Source: Candidatus Kuenenia stuttgartensis | GTDB lineage: Bacteria; Planctomycetota; Planctomycetia; Pirellulales; UBA1268 | Reading direction: 5' to 3' | Assembly: GCA_945865325.1 (NCBI GenBank) | Contig: CAMBFA010000003.1 | Location: 2,956-66,955 of the forward strand | DNA length: 64,000 nt | Shown here: positions 6,355 to 59,428 of the stretch, piece after piece | Layout: every line of letters begins with the position of its first letter | Numbering within the stretch: position 1 is the stretch's first letter | Notes under the pieces: generated by a model | Told to the model about the DNA's origin: nothing | Database searches by the model: none | The model's input: the letters and a program-made list of their open reading frames with translations, nothing else | Program-made: the position numbers and the translations under genes

Positions 6355-6523
6355 CCGTGGCCTCGCGGAAGGGGACGTTGGGGGCCGGCGATCGGAGGGG
6401 GAACGGCGGCCCCGGGGATCGGGACCGACGGAGGCCGGGAGCAGGATTGTACCGCGCAGGAATTCCCCTCTCGCACCCCCCTGAAACGGCGGTCACGCCC
6501 CGCGCCGGGCCGAGCAGCGGCGT

Positions 6524-7204
6524 TTAGCGATCGCGCGGCTCCGCGATCGAGCGCAGCATCGCGGCGAGCTTTCCCTGGAGGTCGAGGATCCCCTGCCAGT
6601 GGGCAAAGTCGATCTCGACCCGTTCGGCTCCGGGGCGCATCACCGCCCCCTCGGCCGCCTCGCGGAGCACCGCCAGAACGTGATCGAACAACTCGACGAA
6701 CTCAGCCGACTGGGCCGGGCTCATCCGCTCCGGGAGGGAGGGGAGCTGGCCGGGGAGGATCGGCACGGGGAAGTCGGAGAGGTCGGACTGACCGTCGGGG
6801 CGCGGCGCAGCGATCTTCCGCAGGCGCTGCCCCAGCTCGCGGGCACGCCCCTCCTCGCCGGCGGGGAGACGGGCCGCGATCTCGGCGATCCGCCGATCGA
6901 TGTCGGTCTGCGAGCCGACCAGGATCAGCGAGCGCCCCAGAGCGATCATGTCGCCGTCGCGAACGATCCGCACTTGGATGTCCTCGCCGTTGACCTTCGT
7001 GCCATTGGTGCTCTCGAGATCGGTGAGGACGACCTTGTCGTTGTCCTCCTGGAACTTGAGATGGTAGCGGCTGATCCGTTCGTCGTTGAGCTGGATCGTA
7101 TTGCCTTCCTCGCGGCCGATCGTGACCGGCGTGGCGAGGCGTTCAAACACCTTGCCACGGTCGGCGCCGTGCAGGACTCGGAGGGTGACATACGCCATCG
7201 GCAC
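6524..7204 (-). CDS. FHA domain-containing protein
   Basis: TIGREEGN..ISRYH..DLESTNGTKVNG FHA signature. Confidence 0.92.
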   Translation of the reverse strand: MPMAYVTLRVLHGADRGKVFERLATPVTIGREEGNTIQLNDERISRYHLKFQEDNDKVVLTDLESTNGTKVNGEDIQVRIVRDGDMIALGRSLILVGSQTDIDRRIAEIAARLPAGEEGRARELGQRLRKIAAPRPDGQSDLSDFPVPILPGQLPSLPERMSPAQSAEFVELFDHVLAVLREAAEGAVMRPGAERVEIDFAHWQGILDLQGKLAAMLRSIAEPRDR

Positions 7205-7437: not shown

Positions 7438-8439
7438 TCACCCGCGCCGGACCGTTTCGGCCCCCGGCCCCCGTGCTTCCCGGGCCAGCCAGTCGAGCAT
7501 CTCCGCGAGCCCTTCGCGGGTCGATTGGGGATGGACAAACCCCTCCGCCACGAGTCGATCGGCAGGAAAGTCGCTCGCCAGCGCCAAGCCCGCCAGCCAC
7601 GCGCTCGACAGCGGCAGCCCGCGGCCGATCAGGCGCCCGAGCCCATCGGCGATCGGGGCCGCGAGCCGGGCAAGGGCCGGGGGGATGCTGCGGGGCGGGG
7701 GAGCGCCGCTGATCTCCGCGATCATGCCCGCCAAACCGGCCACCGAGGTCGTGGCGGGATCGGAAACTTCGAACACGGTACACCCCGCCCCCGGGGCATC
7801 GAGGGCGAAGGCGATCGCCGCGGCGAGGTTTCGGCGCGAGACGACCGAGCGGGGGGACGTGCCCGGCCCGACGAACGCGGGGCGCCCGGCAATCACCCGG
7901 CGGGCGAGCGCGGCGAAGTTCGTGCCGGGGCCGGGACCGTAGACCGGCGCGGGGCGGAGGATCACCCCCCGCCGACCGGCATCGGCCTCCACCCAGCTAC
8001 GGACCTCCGCCTCGGCACGGGCCTTCGACCCGCCGTAGGTGGCACCCGTCTCGAGCCGGCGCTCGGACGGAGAGCCCGATGATCCCGGCACGATGGCGCT
8101 GATCGAACTGACGAATACGAACCGGCGAACACCATACTCCGCCCCCCACTCCAGCCAAGCGCGAGTGCCGGCCACGTTGACCCGGTCACAGGCGTCCGGA
8201 TCGGCGGGCGTCGGCGCTAGCACCCTCTGCTCGACCTCGAGGTGGATGATCGCCGCGGGGCGCGGATGCGGCGCCGCGGCCAGCATCTCCCCGCGCGTTC
8301 GTCCCTGCCAGCCGGGCGGAAGCGAAAGATCGGTCGGCGGGTGCCGGCTGGTGGCCGTGCCACCATGGCCGGCGGCGGTGAGCACCGAAAGGAGGCCCCG
8401 GCCGACGAACCCCCGCGCTCCGGTGACGACGCACTCCAT
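7438..8439 (-). CDS. NAD-dependent epimerase/dehydratase
   Basis: VVTGARGFVG Rossmann motif, FVSS, YGGSK, RPAPVYGPG. Start set at ATG 8439. Confidence 0.88.
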   Translation of the reverse strand: MECVVTGARGFVGRGLLSVLTAAGHGGTATSRHPPTDLSLPPGWQGRTRGEMLAAAPHPRPAAIIHLEVEQRVLAPTPADPDACDRVNVAGTRAWLEWGAEYGVRRFVFVSSISAIVPGSSGSPSERRLETGATYGGSKARAEAEVRSWVEADAGRRGVILRPAPVYGPGPGTNFAALARRVIAGRPAFVGPGTSPRSVVSRRNLAAAIAFALDAPGAGCTVFEVSDPATTSVAGLAGMIAEISGAPPPRSIPPALARLAAPIADGLGRLIGRGLPLSSAWLAGLALASDFPADRLVAEGFVHPQSTREGLAEMLDWLAREARGPGAETVRRG

Positions 8440-45237: not shown

Positions 45238-47198
45238 GACCGCGACTCCCGCGGATCATCATCCTCACGCAGCGGCGCAGTCCCCACCGAGGAAGCCATG
45301 CATTCCAGCGCCGCGATCTCCATCAGCACCCCGCGGGCGGCATCGGGGCCATCGCCGAGGATCGCGGCCTTGAGATCGCCGAGCCACTGACGGACCTCGG
45401 CCAGCGGGCGGCTGGGACGGAAGACCTGGAACACAAGACCACCCCCAACCGAATGCCTGATCTCGTCGTCGAAAAATAGCTCCTCGGCGAGCTTCTCCCC
45501 GTCGCGGAGGCTACCGAAGCGGATCTCGACATCCTCCCTCGGCACGCGCATCACGTACGCCAGGCTGTTGACGAGCTCGACGATCTTGACCGGCTCGCCC
45601 ATGTCGAGGACGAACGTCCCGCTCCCTCCGGCCAACGCCCCGGCTCCCAGTGAGAGACAGGCGGCATCGGACGCCGTGAGGAATCGCCGTGCCACGTCGG
45701 GATGGGTGACAGTGATCGGCTGGCGGCGGACGAGTTGGCGGGTGAAGATCGGCACGGCGGTCCCGCTGGAGCCGATGACGTTCCCGAATCGTACGACCAC
45801 GAACTTCGTCGTTGAGCCCTCGCCGAGCGACTGGAAGAACCGCTCTGCGACGAGCTTCGAGGCCCCCATCACCCCCGTCGGGTTGACGGCCTTGTCGGTC
45901 GAGAGGGCGACAAACGTCTCCACGCCGTGGGCCTCAGCGAGGTCGGCAAGTGCCGCCGTGGCGAGGATGTTGTTCTCGATCGCCTCCACGGGGTGCCCCT
46001 GGAGCATCGGCACGTGCTTGTAGCCGGCGGCGTGGACGACGATCGCCGGCCGGTGGCTCTGGAAAACATCCTCCAGCCGCTCCGTGTCGTGGATGTCGAC
46101 GAGGCAGAGAACGAGGCCGATCTCCCCCTCCCCGAACGCGGCGGCCCGCTCCTGCAACTCCCGATGGATTTCGAAAAGGCTGCATTCCGACCGGTCGACC
46201 AGCAGGATCCGAGCTGGACGGAGCGTCACGAGGAGCCGGCAGATCTCGGCACCGATCGCTCCACCGGCGCCGGTGACCATGACTGTCTTGTCATGCACCC
46301 AGGAGGCGAGCCGAGGGCCGTGCGCGGACGCCGTCGGATCGGGGAGTGTGACGAGGTCGCGCAGTTCCACGCCGCGCACGCGGACGTCGGCGTCGGCCTC
46401 CTCGCCGCACGGCTCGGCGATCACCACGCGGACACCGATCGCGGTGCAGGCCTCGCAGATCCGCCGCAGCCGGCGGCCGAACACGCTCCCGGAGCGGACG
46501 ATGACATCGGTCACACGCAACCGCTGGGCGCAGGCGGCGACATGGTCGATGCCACCGATCACGCGGGCGACGGCCGTTCGGGAGCCATGTCGGGTGGGAT
46601 CGTCATCGAGCAGACCCGACACGAAATACCCCCCGCGCTTCGCCGACATCAACTGGGCGGCGATCGCCAACCCCTGCGGTGAGCCATCGATGACGAGGGC
46701 ATTGCGCTGATGGCCGACCGGCTCGGCGGGCATCAACTCTTCGTAGATGCTCCGCGCCGCCGCCTGGAGGCCACCGACGGCGAGGAGGGTGAAGGCCCAA
46801 TCGAGGAGGAGGACGGTCCGGGGAATCTGGATCCAGCCCAGCCGCAGCGTGGTGAAGTAGTAATTGGCCGCCACGAGAACCAGCAGGCAGGTGGTCGTGG
46901 CCCGGACCAGGATGCTCAAATCCGCGAAGCGGATCGTGCGGAGCGACCGGTGGCAGATGCCGCGGGTGTAAAAGACGAACAGCTTCACAAGCACGACCCA
47001 GCCGATCGTGCGGACGATCGTCGCTGCGTCGCTCCCCCGGAGGAGAAGCTCGCTGCGGGTGAAGTAGGCTGCCAGGTAGGTCAACCCGAAGACGAGGGCG
47101 AGGCAGCCTGCCGTGACGATCGCCTCGCGCGTTGGCGCGACCGATCGGAGCCAGATGCGGAAGGCCGAAGCGGCGGCAGCGATGAGCGTGAGCGGCAT
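45234..47198 (-). CDS. Second CapD/PglF/WbpM-like nucleotide-sugar dehydratase
   Basis: TGAGGAIGAE, HAAGYKHVP, STDKAVNP, MGASK, VRFGNV. Confidence 0.92.
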   Translation of the reverse strand: MPLTLIAAAASAFRIWLRSVAPTREAIVTAGCLALVFGLTYLAAYFTRSELLLRGSDAATIVRTIGWVVLVKLFVFYTRGICHRSLRTIRFADLSILVRATTTCLLVLVAANYYFTTLRLGWIQIPRTVLLLDWAFTLLAVGGLQAAARSIYEELMPAEPVGHQRNALVIDGSPQGLAIAAQLMSAKRGGYFVSGLLDDDPTRHGSRTAVARVIGGIDHVAACAQRLRVTDVIVRSGSVFGRRLRRICEACTAIGVRVVIAEPCGEEADADVRVRGVELRDLVTLPDPTASAHGPRLASWVHDKTVMVTGAGGAIGAEICRLLVTLRPARILLVDRSECSLFEIHRELQERAAAFGEGEIGLVLCLVDIHDTERLEDVFQSHRPAIVVHAAGYKHVPMLQGHPVEAIENNILATAALADLAEAHGVETFVALSTDKAVNPTGVMGASKLVAERFFQSLGEGSTTKFVVVRFGNVIGSSGTAVPIFTRQLVRRQPITVTHPDVARRFLTASDAACLSLGAGALAGGSGTFVLDMGEPVKIVELVNSLAYVMRVPREDVEIRFGSLRDGEKLAEELFFDDEIRHSVGGGLVFQVFRPSRPLAEVRQWLGDLKAAILGDGPDAARGVLMEIAALECMASSVGTAPLREDDDPRESRS

Positions 47199-47456
47199 GG
47201 ATCGGATCGCAGGCCGGGGGCTGCCCGGCTCCTCGTCTGGCTCGCTCGTCTGGCTCGGACACGGACCGCTGTCGGGAGCGACGGATGACGCTGGCCCGTA
47301 TCCTAAGGCTTCGTAAGGATCGGTCCCAAGCGGGCAAAAGTCCAGCCGCCCTGCCGGGGGACTTCCCCCACATCAAGGGGATTCACACGATCTCGCCAGC
47401 GCGATTGCGACGGCTGGGAAGATTGGCCGGGGACGCGGCCCGGGGCGCCCCACGGC

Positions 47457-48983
47457 TCATCGATCGGCCCTCCCCGCTGGGGTCTTGGCGCGGGCCACAA
47501 TACCAGCCAGCATCCCACCGAAGATCAGCTCGTGGAGCGGCCAGATGGCATACCAGTAGGCCAGGCCGCCGAGGCCCCGCGGGTCGAAGACGGCCGTCTG
47601 GTGGATCGTCACCATGCCCCCGTCGGTGAGGCCCGGATCCCGGCGGACCACCTCATATTCCAGCCAGCCGCGGCCGGGGAGCAGCATCTCCGCCACGAGC
47701 CGGATCCGACGCGGTGGATCGCACGCCTCCACCCGCCAGCAGTCGAGGACATCCCCGGCGACAAGGCGGTCGGGATCGCGGCGACCCCGTCCCATCCCCG
47801 GGCCCCCTAGGATCCGATCGACCCAGCCCCGCAACTGCCAGAGCCACTCGTGCCCGTACCAGCCGTGCGGGCCGCCGATCCGCTCGATGGCGGCAAAAGC
47901 TCGCTCGGGCGCGACATCGACGGTGGCATGGCGATGATCGACGAGCCGTGGCCCCTCGAAGTGCCCGCCATACCGGCGTGGCAGTTCCTCGGCATCGGCG
48001 ATGTCGGCCCACCGCCGCCCCTCGAAAACGGCGTCCTCCCGGGCCATCGCGTCGCGCACCGCCACCGCCAGCGACTTCGGCCGGATCGGAAAATCGTCGC
48101 GGGCGGTCCGATCGGTGACGACGGTCGGGTTTTTCAGCCCGTCGATCAGCTTCCGACCGACCTTCGAATAACGCGGTGTGACCAGCGCCAGCCAGAGGCT
48201 CGAAAGCCGAGGCGTGAGCACCGGCACCGGAATCAGAAGACGGCGGAGCCCGCGCTGCCGGGCATACTCCCGCATGATGTCGCCGTACGAGACTCGGTCG
48301 GGGCCACCGATGCCATAGATCCTCGACCCCTTCCCCACCGGCCCGGTGGGGAGGTCGGCCGCCGCCACGAGGTAGGCGACGACGTCGTCGACGGCGATCG
48401 GCTGGGTGGCGGTCGCGAGCCACGCCGGGCAGATCATCACCGGCAGCCGCTCGACGAGGGTCCGCACGAGGTCGAAGGAGAAGCTCCCTGCCCCGATCAC
48501 GATCGAGGCCCGGAGCTCGACCACCTCGACTCCCGTTCCCCGGAGGATCGCCCCGACTTCGTGCCGGCTGCGAAGATGGGCCGAGAGCCGGTCGTCCTCG
48601 GCGCCCAGGCCGCCGAGGTAGACGATCCGCGACACCCCGGCTCCCCGCGCTGCCTCGGCAAAACGCTCCGCGGCGAGTCGGTCGGCGCGTTCGAAATCGA
48701 CCCCCTGGTCCATCGAATGGACGAGCCAATAGGCGACCTCGACCCCAGCGCAGGCCTCGACCAGCGCGGCCGGGTCGGACGCATCCCCGACAACGACGCT
48801 GACGCGCGACCGGAGCGCTGCGGCCGGGGGGCCAACCGCTGCCCCGGCGTCGAGGCGATCGAGGATCTCATCGAGCTTGCCCGCCTTGCGGACGAGGCAG
48901 CGAACCTCATGCCCACGCTCGAGAAGCGCCCCGAGGAGACAGCTCCCCACGTAGCCCGTGGCGCCAGTGAGGAGGATGTTCAT
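47457..48983 (-). CDS. YbjT-like atypical SDR with DUF2867-like C-terminus
   Basis: TGATGYVG, YWLVHSM, SAHLRSR, IERIGG..GWY, PGRGWLE, YWYAIWPLH. Confidence 0.88.
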   Translation of the reverse strand: MNILLTGATGYVGSCLLGALLERGHEVRCLVRKAGKLDEILDRLDAGAAVGPPAAALRSRVSVVVGDASDPAALVEACAGVEVAYWLVHSMDQGVDFERADRLAAERFAEAARGAGVSRIVYLGGLGAEDDRLSAHLRSRHEVGAILRGTGVEVVELRASIVIGAGSFSFDLVRTLVERLPVMICPAWLATATQPIAVDDVVAYLVAAADLPTGPVGKGSRIYGIGGPDRVSYGDIMREYARQRGLRRLLIPVPVLTPRLSSLWLALVTPRYSKVGRKLIDGLKNPTVVTDRTARDDFPIRPKSLAVAVRDAMAREDAVFEGRRWADIADAEELPRRYGGHFEGPRLVDHRHATVDVAPERAFAAIERIGGPHGWYGHEWLWQLRGWVDRILGGPGMGRGRRDPDRLVAGDVLDCWRVEACDPPRRIRLVAEMLLPGRGWLEYEVVRRDPGLTDGGMVTIHQTAVFDPRGLGGLAYWYAIWPLHELIFGGMLAGIVARAKTPAGRADR

Positions 48984-57212: not shown

Positions 57213-57650
57213 ATGACCATGACGACCCGCGAACGCTGGACGGTCTATCCGCTTCTCTTTCTGGCGATCGGCCTGGCCATGCGGGCCCAGTCGGGCACGC
57301 CTGATCTCAATGGCCGCATCCGCTGCGAGATTCTCGAGGCCGAGAACGTTGTTTGCCAGAATCTCCGGGTGGAGTCGGCCGACGGAAACCCGCTCGTCCA
57401 CCTCGGACGCGTGCAGGGGGGCGGCGGAGGGCGGATCGAGATCCGCGACGCTCGGGGCAACGTTTCGATGGCCGTCGGGACACGCTCCGGCCGATCCGAA
57501 GGGGGCGTGGAATTTTTCGAACGCGATGGTCACGAGTCGGCGCGACTCACGTCGACCGGCCTCGATGAACCGCCCCCGGACGCCCCCGCTCCCCGAGCCT
57601 CTCCGACAGACCAACAGCCGGGGGCCGAGGCCACCGACGCCGGGACGTAG
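57213..57650 (+). CDS. Hypothetical membrane-anchored protein
   Basis: RERWTVYPLLFLAIGLAMR anchor followed by beta-rich repeats. Confidence 0.7.
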   Translation: MTMTTRERWTVYPLLFLAIGLAMRAQSGTPDLNGRIRCEILEAENVVCQNLRVESADGNPLVHLGRVQGGGGGRIEIRDARGNVSMAVGTRSGRSEGGVEFFERDGHESARLTSTGLDEPPPDAPAPRASPTDQQPGAEATDAGT

Positions 57651-57661
57651 GGCTGTCTCTA

Positions 57662-57881
57662 CCTTCACGCGAGGCCCGTCATCCCTGACGGCCTCGCTTG
57701 CGAACCTCCGGTTCGTGGCGCGCTCAGCCGGGCTCCAAGCCCGCGAACTTTTCAATGCGCCCGGCAGGACTCGAACCTGCAGGCACCCTTCACGCGAGGC
57801 CCGTCATCCCTGACGGCCTCGCTTGCGAACCTCCGGTTCGTGGCGCGCTCAGCCGGGCTCCAAGCCCGCGAACTTTTCTAG

Positions 57882-57907
<26 letters not shown>
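57662..57907 (-). repeat. Two tandem ~125-bp tRNA-linked repeats, each containing the tRNA 3' 26 bp plus a 92-bp hairpin-rich unit
   Basis: 57662-57753 is identical to 57787-57878. tgcgcccggcaggactcgaacctgca occurs at 57756-57781 and 57882-57907. Confidence 0.92.
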
Positions 57908-57955
<48 letters not shown>

Positions 57956-58104
57956 GCGATGGCAAAGAGTATACGCGCTGAACGGCCAGCCGCCTCCCCG
58001 CTCCAACCGGCACCGCCATCCTAGCCGGTCTTTCTTTCCACCGACTCTGCCGGTGGGGCAAATCTGCCGATCTTTTTTTCAACGGCGGAGCAGAAGCCGT
58101 TCCC

Positions 58105-58128: not shown

Positions 58129-58240
58129 CTAATACGGCCACGGACGTCCGATCGGTTCCGTCGGTTTTTTCCAGCAACAACCGGCTCGTAACGATCCATC
58201 CCTTCCCCACCCCCAACTTCCGTTTTCCGGAGATTCCACC

Positions 58241-59428
58241 ATGCCCGTCGTCAATCCCCATGGCACCGTCCCAGCGGCTTCCGCGTTCCCCAGGATCGAC
58301 ACATGGTCGTTCCTCTTCGGCAGCGGAGCGATGCTTCTGGTTGCCTGGTTCGGCCTCCTCCGCCCCTCGCAACAACACCTCACCGGCCTCGAGCGTCAGG
58401 TGAGCCAGCTGACGAGAACCGTGTCTGATCTGAATGCCACCGGCAACGCGGCCAAGGGCACCAATGCCCTCCTCGCGCAGCTCCAGATCCAGGCCCGCCA
58501 ACTCGGCGATGCCGAGGAGGCTTTCGGAAGGTTTGAGAAACTCGCCGATCGGATCTCGGCCCAGACCGCAGCGATCGAACAGGCAACAATGACCCTCGAT
58601 CGCGTCGATACCCTCCACGCCGGGATCGCCGCCCGTGGTCCGGCCGTCGGTGAAGCCTCGACCGTCCTCGGCGAGATGGCCGATCTGTCGGCGAAGATCG
58701 AGGCGTCCCGTGATTCGGCCCGCGAAGCCCGTTCGTCGCTGGCGGTCCTCGACGCCCTCCACCAGGATCTGACGGTGGGGATGACGAAGATTGACGCCGC
58801 GACGCCGGTCCTCGATGACGTCCAGAAGCTCGTTGCCCGGATCGCCGGATCGGCGACCGTCGTCGATCACGCCACCGAGGTCCAGGAGCGTGCCGGCCGG
58901 CTGGGACGCGCCGTCATCGACTCCGAGGCATCGATCGTCGACGCAGAAAAGTCGGTCGAGCGGATCTCCGGCCTGACATCGTCGATCGTCAGTCAGGATA
59001 CGGTCACCGGCCCAGCCGAGGAACGTCTCCGTCGACTCGTGGCCCTGAAGAGTGCGGTCGTGTCGGGTGCCGACCACCTCGATGACGCCGATGCCACGCT
59101 CGCCAGGTTCCACGATCTGCGGGACGGCCTGCGGAACGCCACCTCGACCGTCAGCGACGTGCAGCACATGATCGTCGACGTCATGCTCCTCCAGCCGGCC
59201 GTCGACCGGGCCGTCGCCGCCCTCAAGCCGGTGATCGAACTGACGCGGACCGCCCGTCAGGCCGATCCGGCCGCGATGGCCCCCCGGGCCTCCTTCGATC
59301 CGACCCGGAAGGGGGAGTCGAATCCCTCCGCGCCGCAACCGGCCAGCGACACGCTGACCCCAGTGTCGGCCCCGGCCGCGGCCACCCCGGTGGTCGGTGC
59401 CGCGCCGACCAGCGACGTCACGAAGTGA
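58241..59428 (+). CDS. Membrane-anchored coiled-coil hypothetical protein
   Basis: One N-terminal TM, a long heptad-like helical region and a Pro/Ala tail. Has its own terminator. Confidence 0.8.
   Translation: MPVVNPHGTVPAASAFPRIDTWSFLFGSGAMLLVAWFGLLRPSQQHLTGLERQVSQLTRTVSDLNATGNAAKGTNALLAQLQIQARQLGDAEEAFGRFEKLADRISAQTAAIEQATMTLDRVDTLHAGIAARGPAVGEASTVLGEMADLSAKIEASRDSAREARSSLAVLDALHQDLTVGMTKIDAATPVLDDVQKLVARIAGSATVVDHATEVQERAGRLGRAVIDSEASIVDAEKSVERISGLTSSIVSQDTVTGPAEERLRRLVALKSAVVSGADHLDDADATLARFHDLRDGLRNATSTVSDVQHMIVDVMLLQPAVDRAVAALKPVIELTRTARQADPAAMAPRASFDPTRKGESNPSAPQPASDTLTPVSAPAAATPVVGAAPTSDVTK

Follow-up and report, generated by a model that had tools for sequence, protein, structure and literature searches.

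A dispersed triple-hairpin repeat, probably MITE/REP-like, lies in two copies behind a planctomycete tRNA-Arg(TCG) gene

In a 64,000-nt stretch of a planctomycete genome (Candidatus Kuenenia stuttgartensis, assembly GCA_945865325.1, contig CAMBFA010000003.1, positions 2,956 to 66,955; hereafter the window), the gene for tRNA-Arg(TCG) is followed by two copies of a module of three hairpins, each with GGA at its apex. A preliminary description had proposed this array as a candidate tRNA trailer that could act as a sponge for the RNA-binding regulator CsrA. Our findings favour another explanation, to which we assign a probability of roughly 65%: the two units are copies of a high-copy structured repeat, akin to miniature inverted-repeat transposable elements (MITEs) and repetitive extragenic palindromic (REP) sequences, that occurs across the planctomycete family and is not a dedicated tRNA trailer. 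The units belong to a repeat family with many copies per genome, the stems of the module covary, congeners differ in its presence or absence, and at the window locus it has been duplicated in a step of 125 nt together with the last 26-33 nt of the tRNA.

The array behind tRNA-Arg(TCG)

The genome that holds the window, designated G000 (relatives are likewise given G numbers), is a 298-contig assembly, 89% complete, with 68% GC. The features of the locus are the following, the hairpins being numbered hp1 to hp3 in the direction of the tRNA.

57881-57955, minus: tRNA-Arg, anticodon TCG (ARAGORN; Rfam RF00005, 73.1 bits)
57787-57878, minus: module copy A, adjoining the tRNA (direct repeat D1, 100%; covariance model R1 match 57785-57878, 64.3 bits; folds)
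57854-57868, 57826-57840 and 57794-57822, read on minus: hp1, hp2 and hp3 of copy A
57756-57781, minus: 26-nt copy of the tRNA 3' end between the modules (T arm, 3' acceptor strand and discriminator)
57749-57781 versus 57875-57907: direct repeat D2, 33 nt, 91% identity
57662-57753, minus: module copy B, distal (D1; R1 match 57660-57753, 66.0 bits)
57729-57743, 57701-57715 and 57669-57697, read on minus: hp1, hp2 and hp3 of copy B
57662-57907, minus: complete tandem duplication, with a tRNA 3' end and a module in each of its two units of about 125 nt (D1/D2 spacing 125/126 nt)
57213-57650, plus: convergent protein gene, 145 aa, no Pfam family (codon-position GC 0.72/0.55/0.78)

Read on the minus strand, two 92-nt stretches within about 220 nt 3' of the tRNA gene are 100% identical. 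Each unit holds hp1 (cgggc-ttgga-gcccg), hp2 (cgaacc-gga-ggttcg) and hp3 (gcgaggccgtca-ggga-tgacgggcctcgc, which includes CAGGGATG), with three GGA apex sites per module and six in the array, and on this point sequence and folding confirm the preliminary description. The 311-nt array folds more stably than its shuffled counterparts (z = -3.45; 0 of 100 shuffles as stable), and its centroid fold retains hp2 and hp3 in both units. The identity of the 92-nt stretches stands as first described, and the delimitation of the repeat unit does not: the true period is 125 nt, as 26-33 nt of the tRNA 3' end are duplicated too. The D2 copy between the units indicates that the array is a tandem duplication of the tRNA 3' end plus trailer. 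Among the 49 tRNA and tmRNA genes called by ARAGORN in G000, only tRNA-Arg(TCG) has a downstream copy of its own 3' end (last 24 nt, within 3 kb).

The module spans about 95 nt and is built of hp1, hp2, a CAAG spacer, a long hp3 with a CA(N)GGATG apex and a GTGAAG tail. In the window, the modules occupy the short convergent spacer between the stop codon of the plus-strand gene and the 3' end of tRNA-Arg(TCG); the TAG stop of this gene lies 12 nt from the tail of module B, and the gene sequence is kept beside tRNA-Arg(TCG) in relatives. An Rfam scan of the window region returned no family at threshold except tRNA, and the weak rows for YrlA, beta-tmRNA and Bp1_781 were discarded as due to the T arm or to chance.

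A tRNA-like cloverleaf, in which the 3' strand of hp1 and a partial acceptor would pair and hp2 and hp3 would serve as D and anticodon arms, was also considered and dropped: this pairing is inseparable from hp1, the shorter spacers at loci L026 and L037 of other genera are too tight for it, and there is no minihelix 5' strand before the T arm. The 3' arm of hp3 contains a mini open reading frame (ORF) of five codons (57669-57686, minus, in the window, for example), with its ATG drawn from the GGATG apex and its TGA from GTGAAG. Start and stop are always 18 nt apart in three subfamilies with differing stems, and the mini-ORF is probably a by-product of constant stem length.

A repeat dispersed across the family

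A BLAST search with the module against 176 genomes of the family gave matches in 75 of them, in 10 of 12 genera, and the 21-mer cgaaccggaggttcgcaagcg recurs with 100% identity at 1-5 loci per genome, frequently at contig ends. In G000 itself, BLAST found the unit at the window locus only and missed diverged copies. The unit is not unique in its own genome: covariance model R1, built from 37 copies (alignment A3), gives 14 matches at E <= 0.1 in G000, the two of the window and 12 diverged copies elsewhere. Across the family, R1 matches 128 of 151 genomes and all 12 genera, with at least about 1280 matches when 28 candidates are scored per genome. With 150 candidates scored per genome, the model finds 83 copies in G069, 53 in G023, 44 in G010, 24 in G012 and 4 in G017. 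Short (95-137 nt), non-coding and present at 4 to 83 copies per genome, the module has in these respects the make-up of a MITE.

About seven of the G000 copies form one subfamily, with hp1 GAGTGC-gta-GCACTC, hp2 GAAAACC-gga-GGTTTTC and hp3 GTGGAAAAAGGTCA-tgga-TGACTTTTTCCAC. Most copies lie away from tRNAs, a tRNA being found at 1 of 21 fetched BLAST loci. At most of the fetched loci the module sits inside coding-like sequence, preceded by ...WAKLMARVGEEFPLECPxCGGDIRL and followed by ILTHLGEPLEPPPxSPARGPPTDW..., and the upstream frame belongs to the Pfam family Y2_Tnp, the IS91-type transposases (37.6 bits against a cut-off of 20.9). Uninterrupted Y2_Tnp copies read CGGDIRLIAFITEPGPIRKILTHLGEP, and in the filled relics about 96 nt of module stand in place of about 38 nt between CGGDIRL and ILTHLGEP; other junction variants occur at loci L066, L068 and L092. 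The module lies about 40 codons before the Y2_Tnp stop, and a different conserved stretch follows the stop (three 3' ends captured).

In genus g4, the Y2_Tnp relic protein has 52 matches in G117 and 42 in G103, mostly truncated and many of them broken at the module. A subfamily of genus g8 forms intergenic tandem arrays with a period of 105 nt, without tRNA or insertion sequence (IS) flanks. Its stems are wholly different (ATGGC/GCCAT, GAAACC/GGTTTC and GCGAAAACGACA/TGTCGTGTTTCGC) and its apexes are the same.

Covarying stems and conserved apexes

In the MAFFT alignments A1 and A2, hp1 and hp3 were out of register and RNAalifold recovered only 13 pairs; covariation was therefore counted on alignment A4, which holds 105 model-aligned copies (101 distinct) and, being fitted to the model, leans towards the structure. 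In A4, 84.2% of the pair cells hold standard pairs, against 64.4% after shuffling (0 of 500 shuffles as high) and 34-50% with a slid 3' partner, and 22 of the 25 pairs show compensatory change on both sides. Particularly, hp2 is 99.1% paired and all six of its pairs covary. Folds of single sequences, which are independent of the model, give the same three hairpins in sets of 14 and of 43 copies.

GGA stands at the apex of hp3 in 88, of hp2 in 80 and of hp1 in 66 of the 101 distinct copies, the hp2 count being partly circular because the searches were seeded on hp2. The GGA loops are thus conserved across homologous copies while the stems covary, a check that the preliminary description had proposed; hp1 of the commonest G000 subfamily is without GGA. 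The tip of hp3 is mostly CAGGATG, CAGGGATG or CATGGATG, with CACGATG in 9 copies, the hp2 apex stays CCGGAGG, and the spacer between hp2 and hp3 is CAAG in 81 of the 101 and CCAAG in 10 more. Apexes and spacer remain constant across subfamilies whose stems have turned over completely. Fold energies of sense and antisense strands are balanced among 43 unique copies (19 versus 23, p = 0.85), and with such strand-symmetric folding the conservation of GGA is equally a conservation of UCC.

The tRNA-Arg loci of relatives

All 60 relatives have tRNA-Arg(TCG), and a module-bearing trailer is found in part of the genus only. The two-unit state of G000 recurs in G003, a single module without partial tRNA is present in G008, and one module followed by a partial tRNA copy in G001, G002 and G007. 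G016 carries a short unit with hp3 only, then a partial tRNA and then a full module. No module is present in G004, where the tRNA directly joins the sequence that in G001 and G002 comes after the partial copy, and G012 has two modules inverted relative to the tRNA, without partial tRNA. As the module is absent, single, double or inverted among congeners, it is not part of a tRNA trailer in fixed orientation, and the view of the array as a dedicated feature of tRNA-Arg gives way to that of an element dispersed family-wide.

In seven genomes (G016, G007, G001, G009, G006, G013 and G036), tRNA-Arg(TCT) is likewise followed by modules whose hp2 is the same and whose hp1 and hp3 are analogous. Where a partial tRNA copy is present at these loci, it corresponds to the T arm of the TCT tRNA; G001 and G006 carry a module at tRNA-Arg(TCT) but lack such a copy. 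In other genera (G023 and G029), one or two shorter units are found, each ending in the 3' end of the respective tRNA. Many contigs of these metagenome-assembled genomes (MAGs) break at the tRNA-Arg module sites, as is expected of a repeat. In contig C335 of G013 (L051), at least two full modules, each followed by a partial tRNA, stand at tRNA-Arg(TCT) and the array continues past the contig end. In these MAGs, the window included, assembly may understate the number of units.

An inverted fragment consisting of hp3 alone and belonging to another subfamily, cttcac-gcggaaaaagtca-tcca-tgacctttttccgc, immediately follows tRNA-Arg(TCG) or the partial tRNA copy at loci L018 (G001), L019 (G002), L032 (G004) and L053 (G007). 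The spacer at tRNA-Arg(TCG) therefore gathers module pieces in both orientations.

Element ends and candidate transposases

The genus subfamily found in G010 and G000 is about 137 nt long, begins with TAGCAGGCTGTGGATAAAC and ends with CTTTTTCCACGGGCAGCTA, which form an imperfect terminal inverted repeat matching at 14 of 19 positions. In G010 copies read by eye, 13 of 20 start with TA(G/A)CAGGC(T/C)GTGG and 15 of 20 right ends are TA. At three sites with both flanks on one contig (C47, C10 and C46), the element is present in G010 and absent from G000. Such presence or absence at orthologous sites, here between G010 and G000 and at the tRNA-Arg locus among congeners, is in keeping with a MITE.

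Y2_Tnp genes are found in G010, G023 and G069, the last with one fragmentary match despite 83 modules. As a general mobiliser of the module, Y2_Tnp was discarded: its association with the best-scoring subfamily is real, but module abundance does not track it. In addition, the module is not located at an IS end next to a target tetranucleotide, as an IS91 end or mini-element would be.

Orientation and transcription

The orientation of the module relative to neighbouring genes was scored at 72 loci, 12 from G000 and 20 from each of G010, G069 and G023, the latter being the first hits listed that lie over 1.5 kb away from the start of their contig. On the tail side, after GTGAAG, the neighbouring gene occupies the opposite strand, its 3' end towards the tail, at 38 loci and the same strand at 13 (binomial p = 0.0006), and each of the four genomes leans the same way (12:4, 8:2, 11:4 and 7:3). 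No bias is seen on the head side (18:14), and the window copy, facing the plus-strand gene 57213-57650, fits the tail-side rule. An earlier version of this analysis, with stop-to-stop ORFs and fixed thresholds for the GC content of third codon positions (GC3), left 26 of the 72 loci with neither flank called and is superseded. As a consequence of the tail-side bias, the usual mRNA through the module would show UCC or CAUCC(N)UG loops, not GGA. TA targeting, together with stop codons as TA sites in a 68% GC genome, would give placement at gene ends without any RNA function.

In metatranscriptome X1, a 258-nt contig joins 57573-57755 directly to 57882-57956, a one-unit form lacking 126 nt, and in X2 a contig covering 57809-57926 joins the tRNA to the module. 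These contigs, from two studies, show neither strand nor ends, and DNA carry-over is possible. One contig from an RNA library runs 90 nt into the convergent gene; the cover excludes 57533-57569 and, in X1, 57792-57865, and runs X3 and X4 fall outside the modules.

CsrA genes and resemblance to CsrA-binding RNAs

CsrA sites follow the consensus CANGGANG, in which GGA is presented by a hairpin loop. G000 has three Pfam CsrA matches above the cut-off, which answers the question of whether the genome has csrA, and one fliW. On contig C4, fliW (46983-47327) is directly followed by csrA (47430-47585); the other two csrA genes, C4 62271-62426 and C2 63793-63936, have no nearby fliW. The second csrA, C4 62271-62426, lies about 300 nt upstream of tRNA-Glu(ttc) (C4:62709-62781).

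RsmW is a family of small RNAs (sRNAs) that bind RsmA. When six other copies of the module were searched against Rfam, RsmW alone came below E = 1, on one of the copies (E = 0.78; 25.8 bits, gathering score 52), which is a resemblance, not membership; no Rfam family reaches threshold on the module, either in the window or in these six copies. CsrA recognises GGA-containing hairpin loops, according to two papers (PMC13443453, PMC4894983). For Planctomycetes, the open-access main texts searched describe neither an element of this type nor an RNA that antagonises CsrA; they mention CsrA together with Planctomycetes sRNAs only in passing, and none was found that joins CsrA to REPs or to transposon-borne GGA repeats.

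Discussion

Our results lead us to regard the module as probably a new, unusually structured form of dispersed MITE/REP-like repeat. We propose that the element spreads by transposition or recombination with a preference for TA sites, which in a 68% GC genome would mostly be stop codons, so that the element would come to abut gene ends. Where it lies, it would act at most as a cluster of hairpins at transcript 3' ends, serving the convergent gene and the tRNA as barrier, stabiliser or terminator. Some protein probably reads the conserved apexes, either a transposase acting on single-stranded DNA or an RNA-binding protein.

Correia elements of Neisseria, BOX, RUP and ERIC are structured bacterial MITEs. 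The module shares with them terminal inverted repeats and TA ends (in one subfamily), tens of copies per genome, a presence that differs between close relatives, and insertion at gene ends and into other mobile elements. It differs in that its inverted repeats vary by subfamily while its apexes are conserved across 12 genera, and in that the search for Y1_Tnp and Y2_Tnp genes revealed no parent IS with the same ends. REPs tagged with GTAG or CGTC, units of 20-40 bp, are reported in Planctomycetes too (PMC3733652). These, the REPs and bacterial interspersed mosaic elements (BIMEs) of Proteobacteria, and the module are alike in being short, GC-rich, palindromic, of high copy number and mainly extragenic at 3' ends, in forming tandem or mosaic arrays, in being occasionally intragenic, in varying in copy number between species and in being suspected RNA hairpins. 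The module differs from them by its length of 95-137 nt, its three hairpins with conserved GGA apexes and CAAG, and the lack of a GTAG or CGTC tag. No partner among the REP-associated tyrosine transposases (RAYTs) was found for it in G000, G010, G012, G023 or G069.

Several points weigh against our preferred explanation. The conservation of the apexes points to a function beyond selfish spread, as ordinary MITEs conserve their ends and not their loop apexes. Moreover, a copy of each tRNA's own 3' end recurs beside the modules, at TCG and TCT genes and in several genera, which simple transposition does not explain; a plain 125-nt tandem duplication accounts for G000 and G003, but not for G001 and G002 versus G004, nor for the TCT loci. 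Terminal inverted repeats with TA ends occur in one subfamily only, and clear inverted repeats are not evident in the subfamily of the window or in the IS-embedded one. The empty sites of G000 and their filled counterparts in G010 are too diverged for a base-exact comparison or for recognising a target duplication, and a duplicated TA is not distinguishable from a TA belonging to the element.

Regarding the enzyme, no transposase could be tied to the module by a Pfam search that covered Y1_Tnp and Y2_Tnp and not the DDE families. Y1_Tnp (RAYT-type) genes were not found in G000, G010 or G012, and the three of G023 and G069 have no flanking pair of modules. The link to RAYTs is accordingly unsupported, as a RAYT flanked by repeats, the mark of REPs and REPINs, was not seen. 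Y2_Tnp was not found in G000, G012 and G008, all of which bear modules. In the orientation set, the 60 loci of relatives come from the top of the hit lists, gene strands were called by GC3 frame-plot and not taken from annotation, and the tail side is uncalled at 21 of the 72 loci. Finally, a consensus scan detected no intrinsic terminators inside the modules.

One alternative is that, wherever it is transcribed, the repeat now serves as a co-opted landing site for an RNA-binding factor, possibly CsrA on the GGA strand, with the tRNA-Arg array as one of many such sites. On the UCC strand, which is the one usually transcribed, anti-Shine-Dalgarno-like CCUCC or CAUCC loops could base-pair to ribosome-binding sites or shield transcript 3' ends. 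This would fit the conservation of apexes and CAAG under complete turnover of the stems, unusual for a purely selfish MITE, the non-random position of copies at gene 3' ends, and the maintenance of the element in genomes where no matching transposase was found. However, a transposase that recognises the hairpins in single-stranded DNA would lead to the same conservation, TA target preference alone can place copies at stop codons, copy numbers from 4 to 83 between genomes are those of mobile DNA, and the expression data carry no strand information. Considering both sides, we grant this alternative a small but real chance of being correct.

A related scenario unites mobility and regulation: a mobile triple-hairpin repeat would have seeded near-consensus CsrA sites (CA(N)GGATG) family-wide, and its tRNA-Arg copies, captured and duplicated, would provide a six-site decoy for the two FliW-less CsrA paralogues through stable-RNA transcription. 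We hold this scenario to be improbable.

As for the sponge proper, the tRNA-Arg precursor would be read through both modules, and its processing would free an RNA with six GGA sites that titrates one or more CsrA paralogues, thereby coupling CsrA activity to stable-RNA synthesis. With three csrA genes and one fliW, two CsrA paralogues are left without a known antagonist; the hp3 apex CAGGGATG (CAGGATG or CATGGATG in relatives) fits the CsrA consensus site, the GGA apexes are kept under stem covariation, RNA-library contigs from two studies bridge tRNA and module, and there is the sub-threshold RsmW row. The sRNAs CsrB, CsrC, RsmX, RsmY, RsmZ and RsmW offer a parallel, with several GGA-apex hairpins, comparable to CA(N)GGATG in hp3, and csrA is present; the module differs from them as a dispersed repeat occurring in both orientations, not a single-copy regulated sRNA gene, has no defined promoter or terminator, and holds candidate sites only. 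3'ETS-leuZ of E. coli is a tRNA external transcribed spacer that sponges base-pairing sRNAs and is a conserved part of its operon. The module resembles it as a structured sequence directly 3' of a tRNA, in principle releasable by tRNA processing, but 3'ETS-leuZ sponges sRNAs and not a protein, and the presence, number and orientation of the module vary among congeners.

Against the sponge stand the dispersal of the module, mostly away from tRNAs, the inverted state of the same locus in G012 and its emptiness in G004, and the equal folding of both strands (p = 0.85). In this regard, the tail-side bias implies that most copies are transcribed as the UCC strand, the RNA contigs are strandless and one reaches 90 nt into the convergent gene, hp1 of the commonest subfamily in G000 has no GGA, and no Rfam family was found at threshold. 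None of the outcomes that the preliminary description had listed as counting against it, such as a genome without csrA or GGA loops that are not conserved, has occurred; even so, the sponge as stated is unlikely, and we give it little weight.

In the IS91 family, oriIS has two subterminal palindromes and terIS has one, and the target or cleavage tetranucleotides are 5'-CTTG or 5'-GTTC (PMC13181058). The module resembles such ends in having palindromes beside CTTG/GTTC and in its physical association with Y2_Tnp genes, and differs from them in lying inside the transposase frame and in an abundance that does not follow Y2_Tnp. The module could derive from, or be mobilised by, an IS91-family rolling-circle (HUH Y2) transposase, with an order of two palindromes, CAAG/CTTG and a third palindrome that would mimic a juxtaposed oriIS-terIS. 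The GTTC-containing T arm of tRNA-Arg would stand in for an end of the element, and the duplication of tRNA 3' ends along with the module would be accounted for. In line with this notion, there are three palindromes, CAAG (CTTG on the other strand) is found in 91 of 101 copies and GTTC in hp2, the best-scoring copies sit at a fixed place in Y2_Tnp relics, and such relics are abundant (52 matches in G117, 42 in G103). Nevertheless, the module lies within the transposase frame and not at an element end, G069 has 83 modules and one fragmentary Y2_Tnp, no Y2_Tnp was found in G000, G012 or G008, the GAAACC/GGTTTC subfamily does not keep GAAC/GTTC, and the order of tetranucleotides and palindromes could not be matched to IS91; such an origin is quite improbable.

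tRNA att sites usually extend from the T arm to the 3' end. Hence the array could also be read as the scar of a tyrosine-integrase element at the tRNA-Arg 3' end, with tRNA end and partial copy as attL and attR and the interior mostly deleted. A direct repeat of 26-33 nt of the tRNA 3' end, from T arm to 3' end, does bound inserted DNA, G001 and G002 carry a module plus a 26-nt tRNA end exactly where G004 has nothing, arrays of one or two units end in their own tRNA 3' end at TCG and TCT genes of several genera, and many MAG contigs break there; but the bounded DNA is only about 95 nt and is the dispersed module of hundreds of non-tRNA sites, not a site-specific remnant, no integrase is seen in the flanks, where none was searched for, no partial tRNA accompanies the module in G008 or at tRNA-Arg(TCT) in G001 and G006, and the layout of G000 and G003 is a plain 125-nt tandem duplication, all of which makes a scar very improbable.

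The array carries a caution, in that a striking set of GGA hairpins behind a tRNA amounts to two copies of a family-wide repeat with hundreds of copies; for such a repeat, a trailer function must hold for the whole family or be shown at this very locus. Three apexes and CAAG conserved over 12 genera, in place of the ends, are unusual among bacterial MITE/REP elements. Should CsrA or another RNA-binding protein read the hairpins, a mobile element would have wired a post-transcriptional network. We know of no CsrA antagonist RNA in the planctomycete phylum. A CsrA decoy of transposable-element origin, if true, would for the first time extend RNA antagonists of CsrA beyond the Proteobacteria-type sRNAs. 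Should a single-strand transposase read them, they would constitute a new REP-like system without RAYT. In practical terms, the element breaks MAG assemblies at tRNA-Arg and elsewhere, which matters for genome annotation.

Minor observations

Two terminator-like hairpins followed by T runs lie on the plus strand at 58051-58069 and 58148-58164, a number that may be due to chance given a shuffled expectation of 1.0; they are located upstream of the tRNA and before a divergent plus-strand gene (58241-59428). On contig C171 of G000, a full copy of the repeat (7771-7894) stands about 160 nt downstream, on the same strand, of a 94-nt ARAGORN call of tRNA-Pro(agg) (7520-7613), and may represent either another tRNA-adjacent copy or a false tRNA call, 94 nt being unusually long. 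Contig C109 of G000 (6394-6770) holds a tight cluster of four tRNAs, Arg-tcg, Arg-cct, Gly-tcc and Gln-ctg, and with it a second tRNA-Arg(tcg); the cluster could be a phage- or island-borne set, or else MAG contamination.

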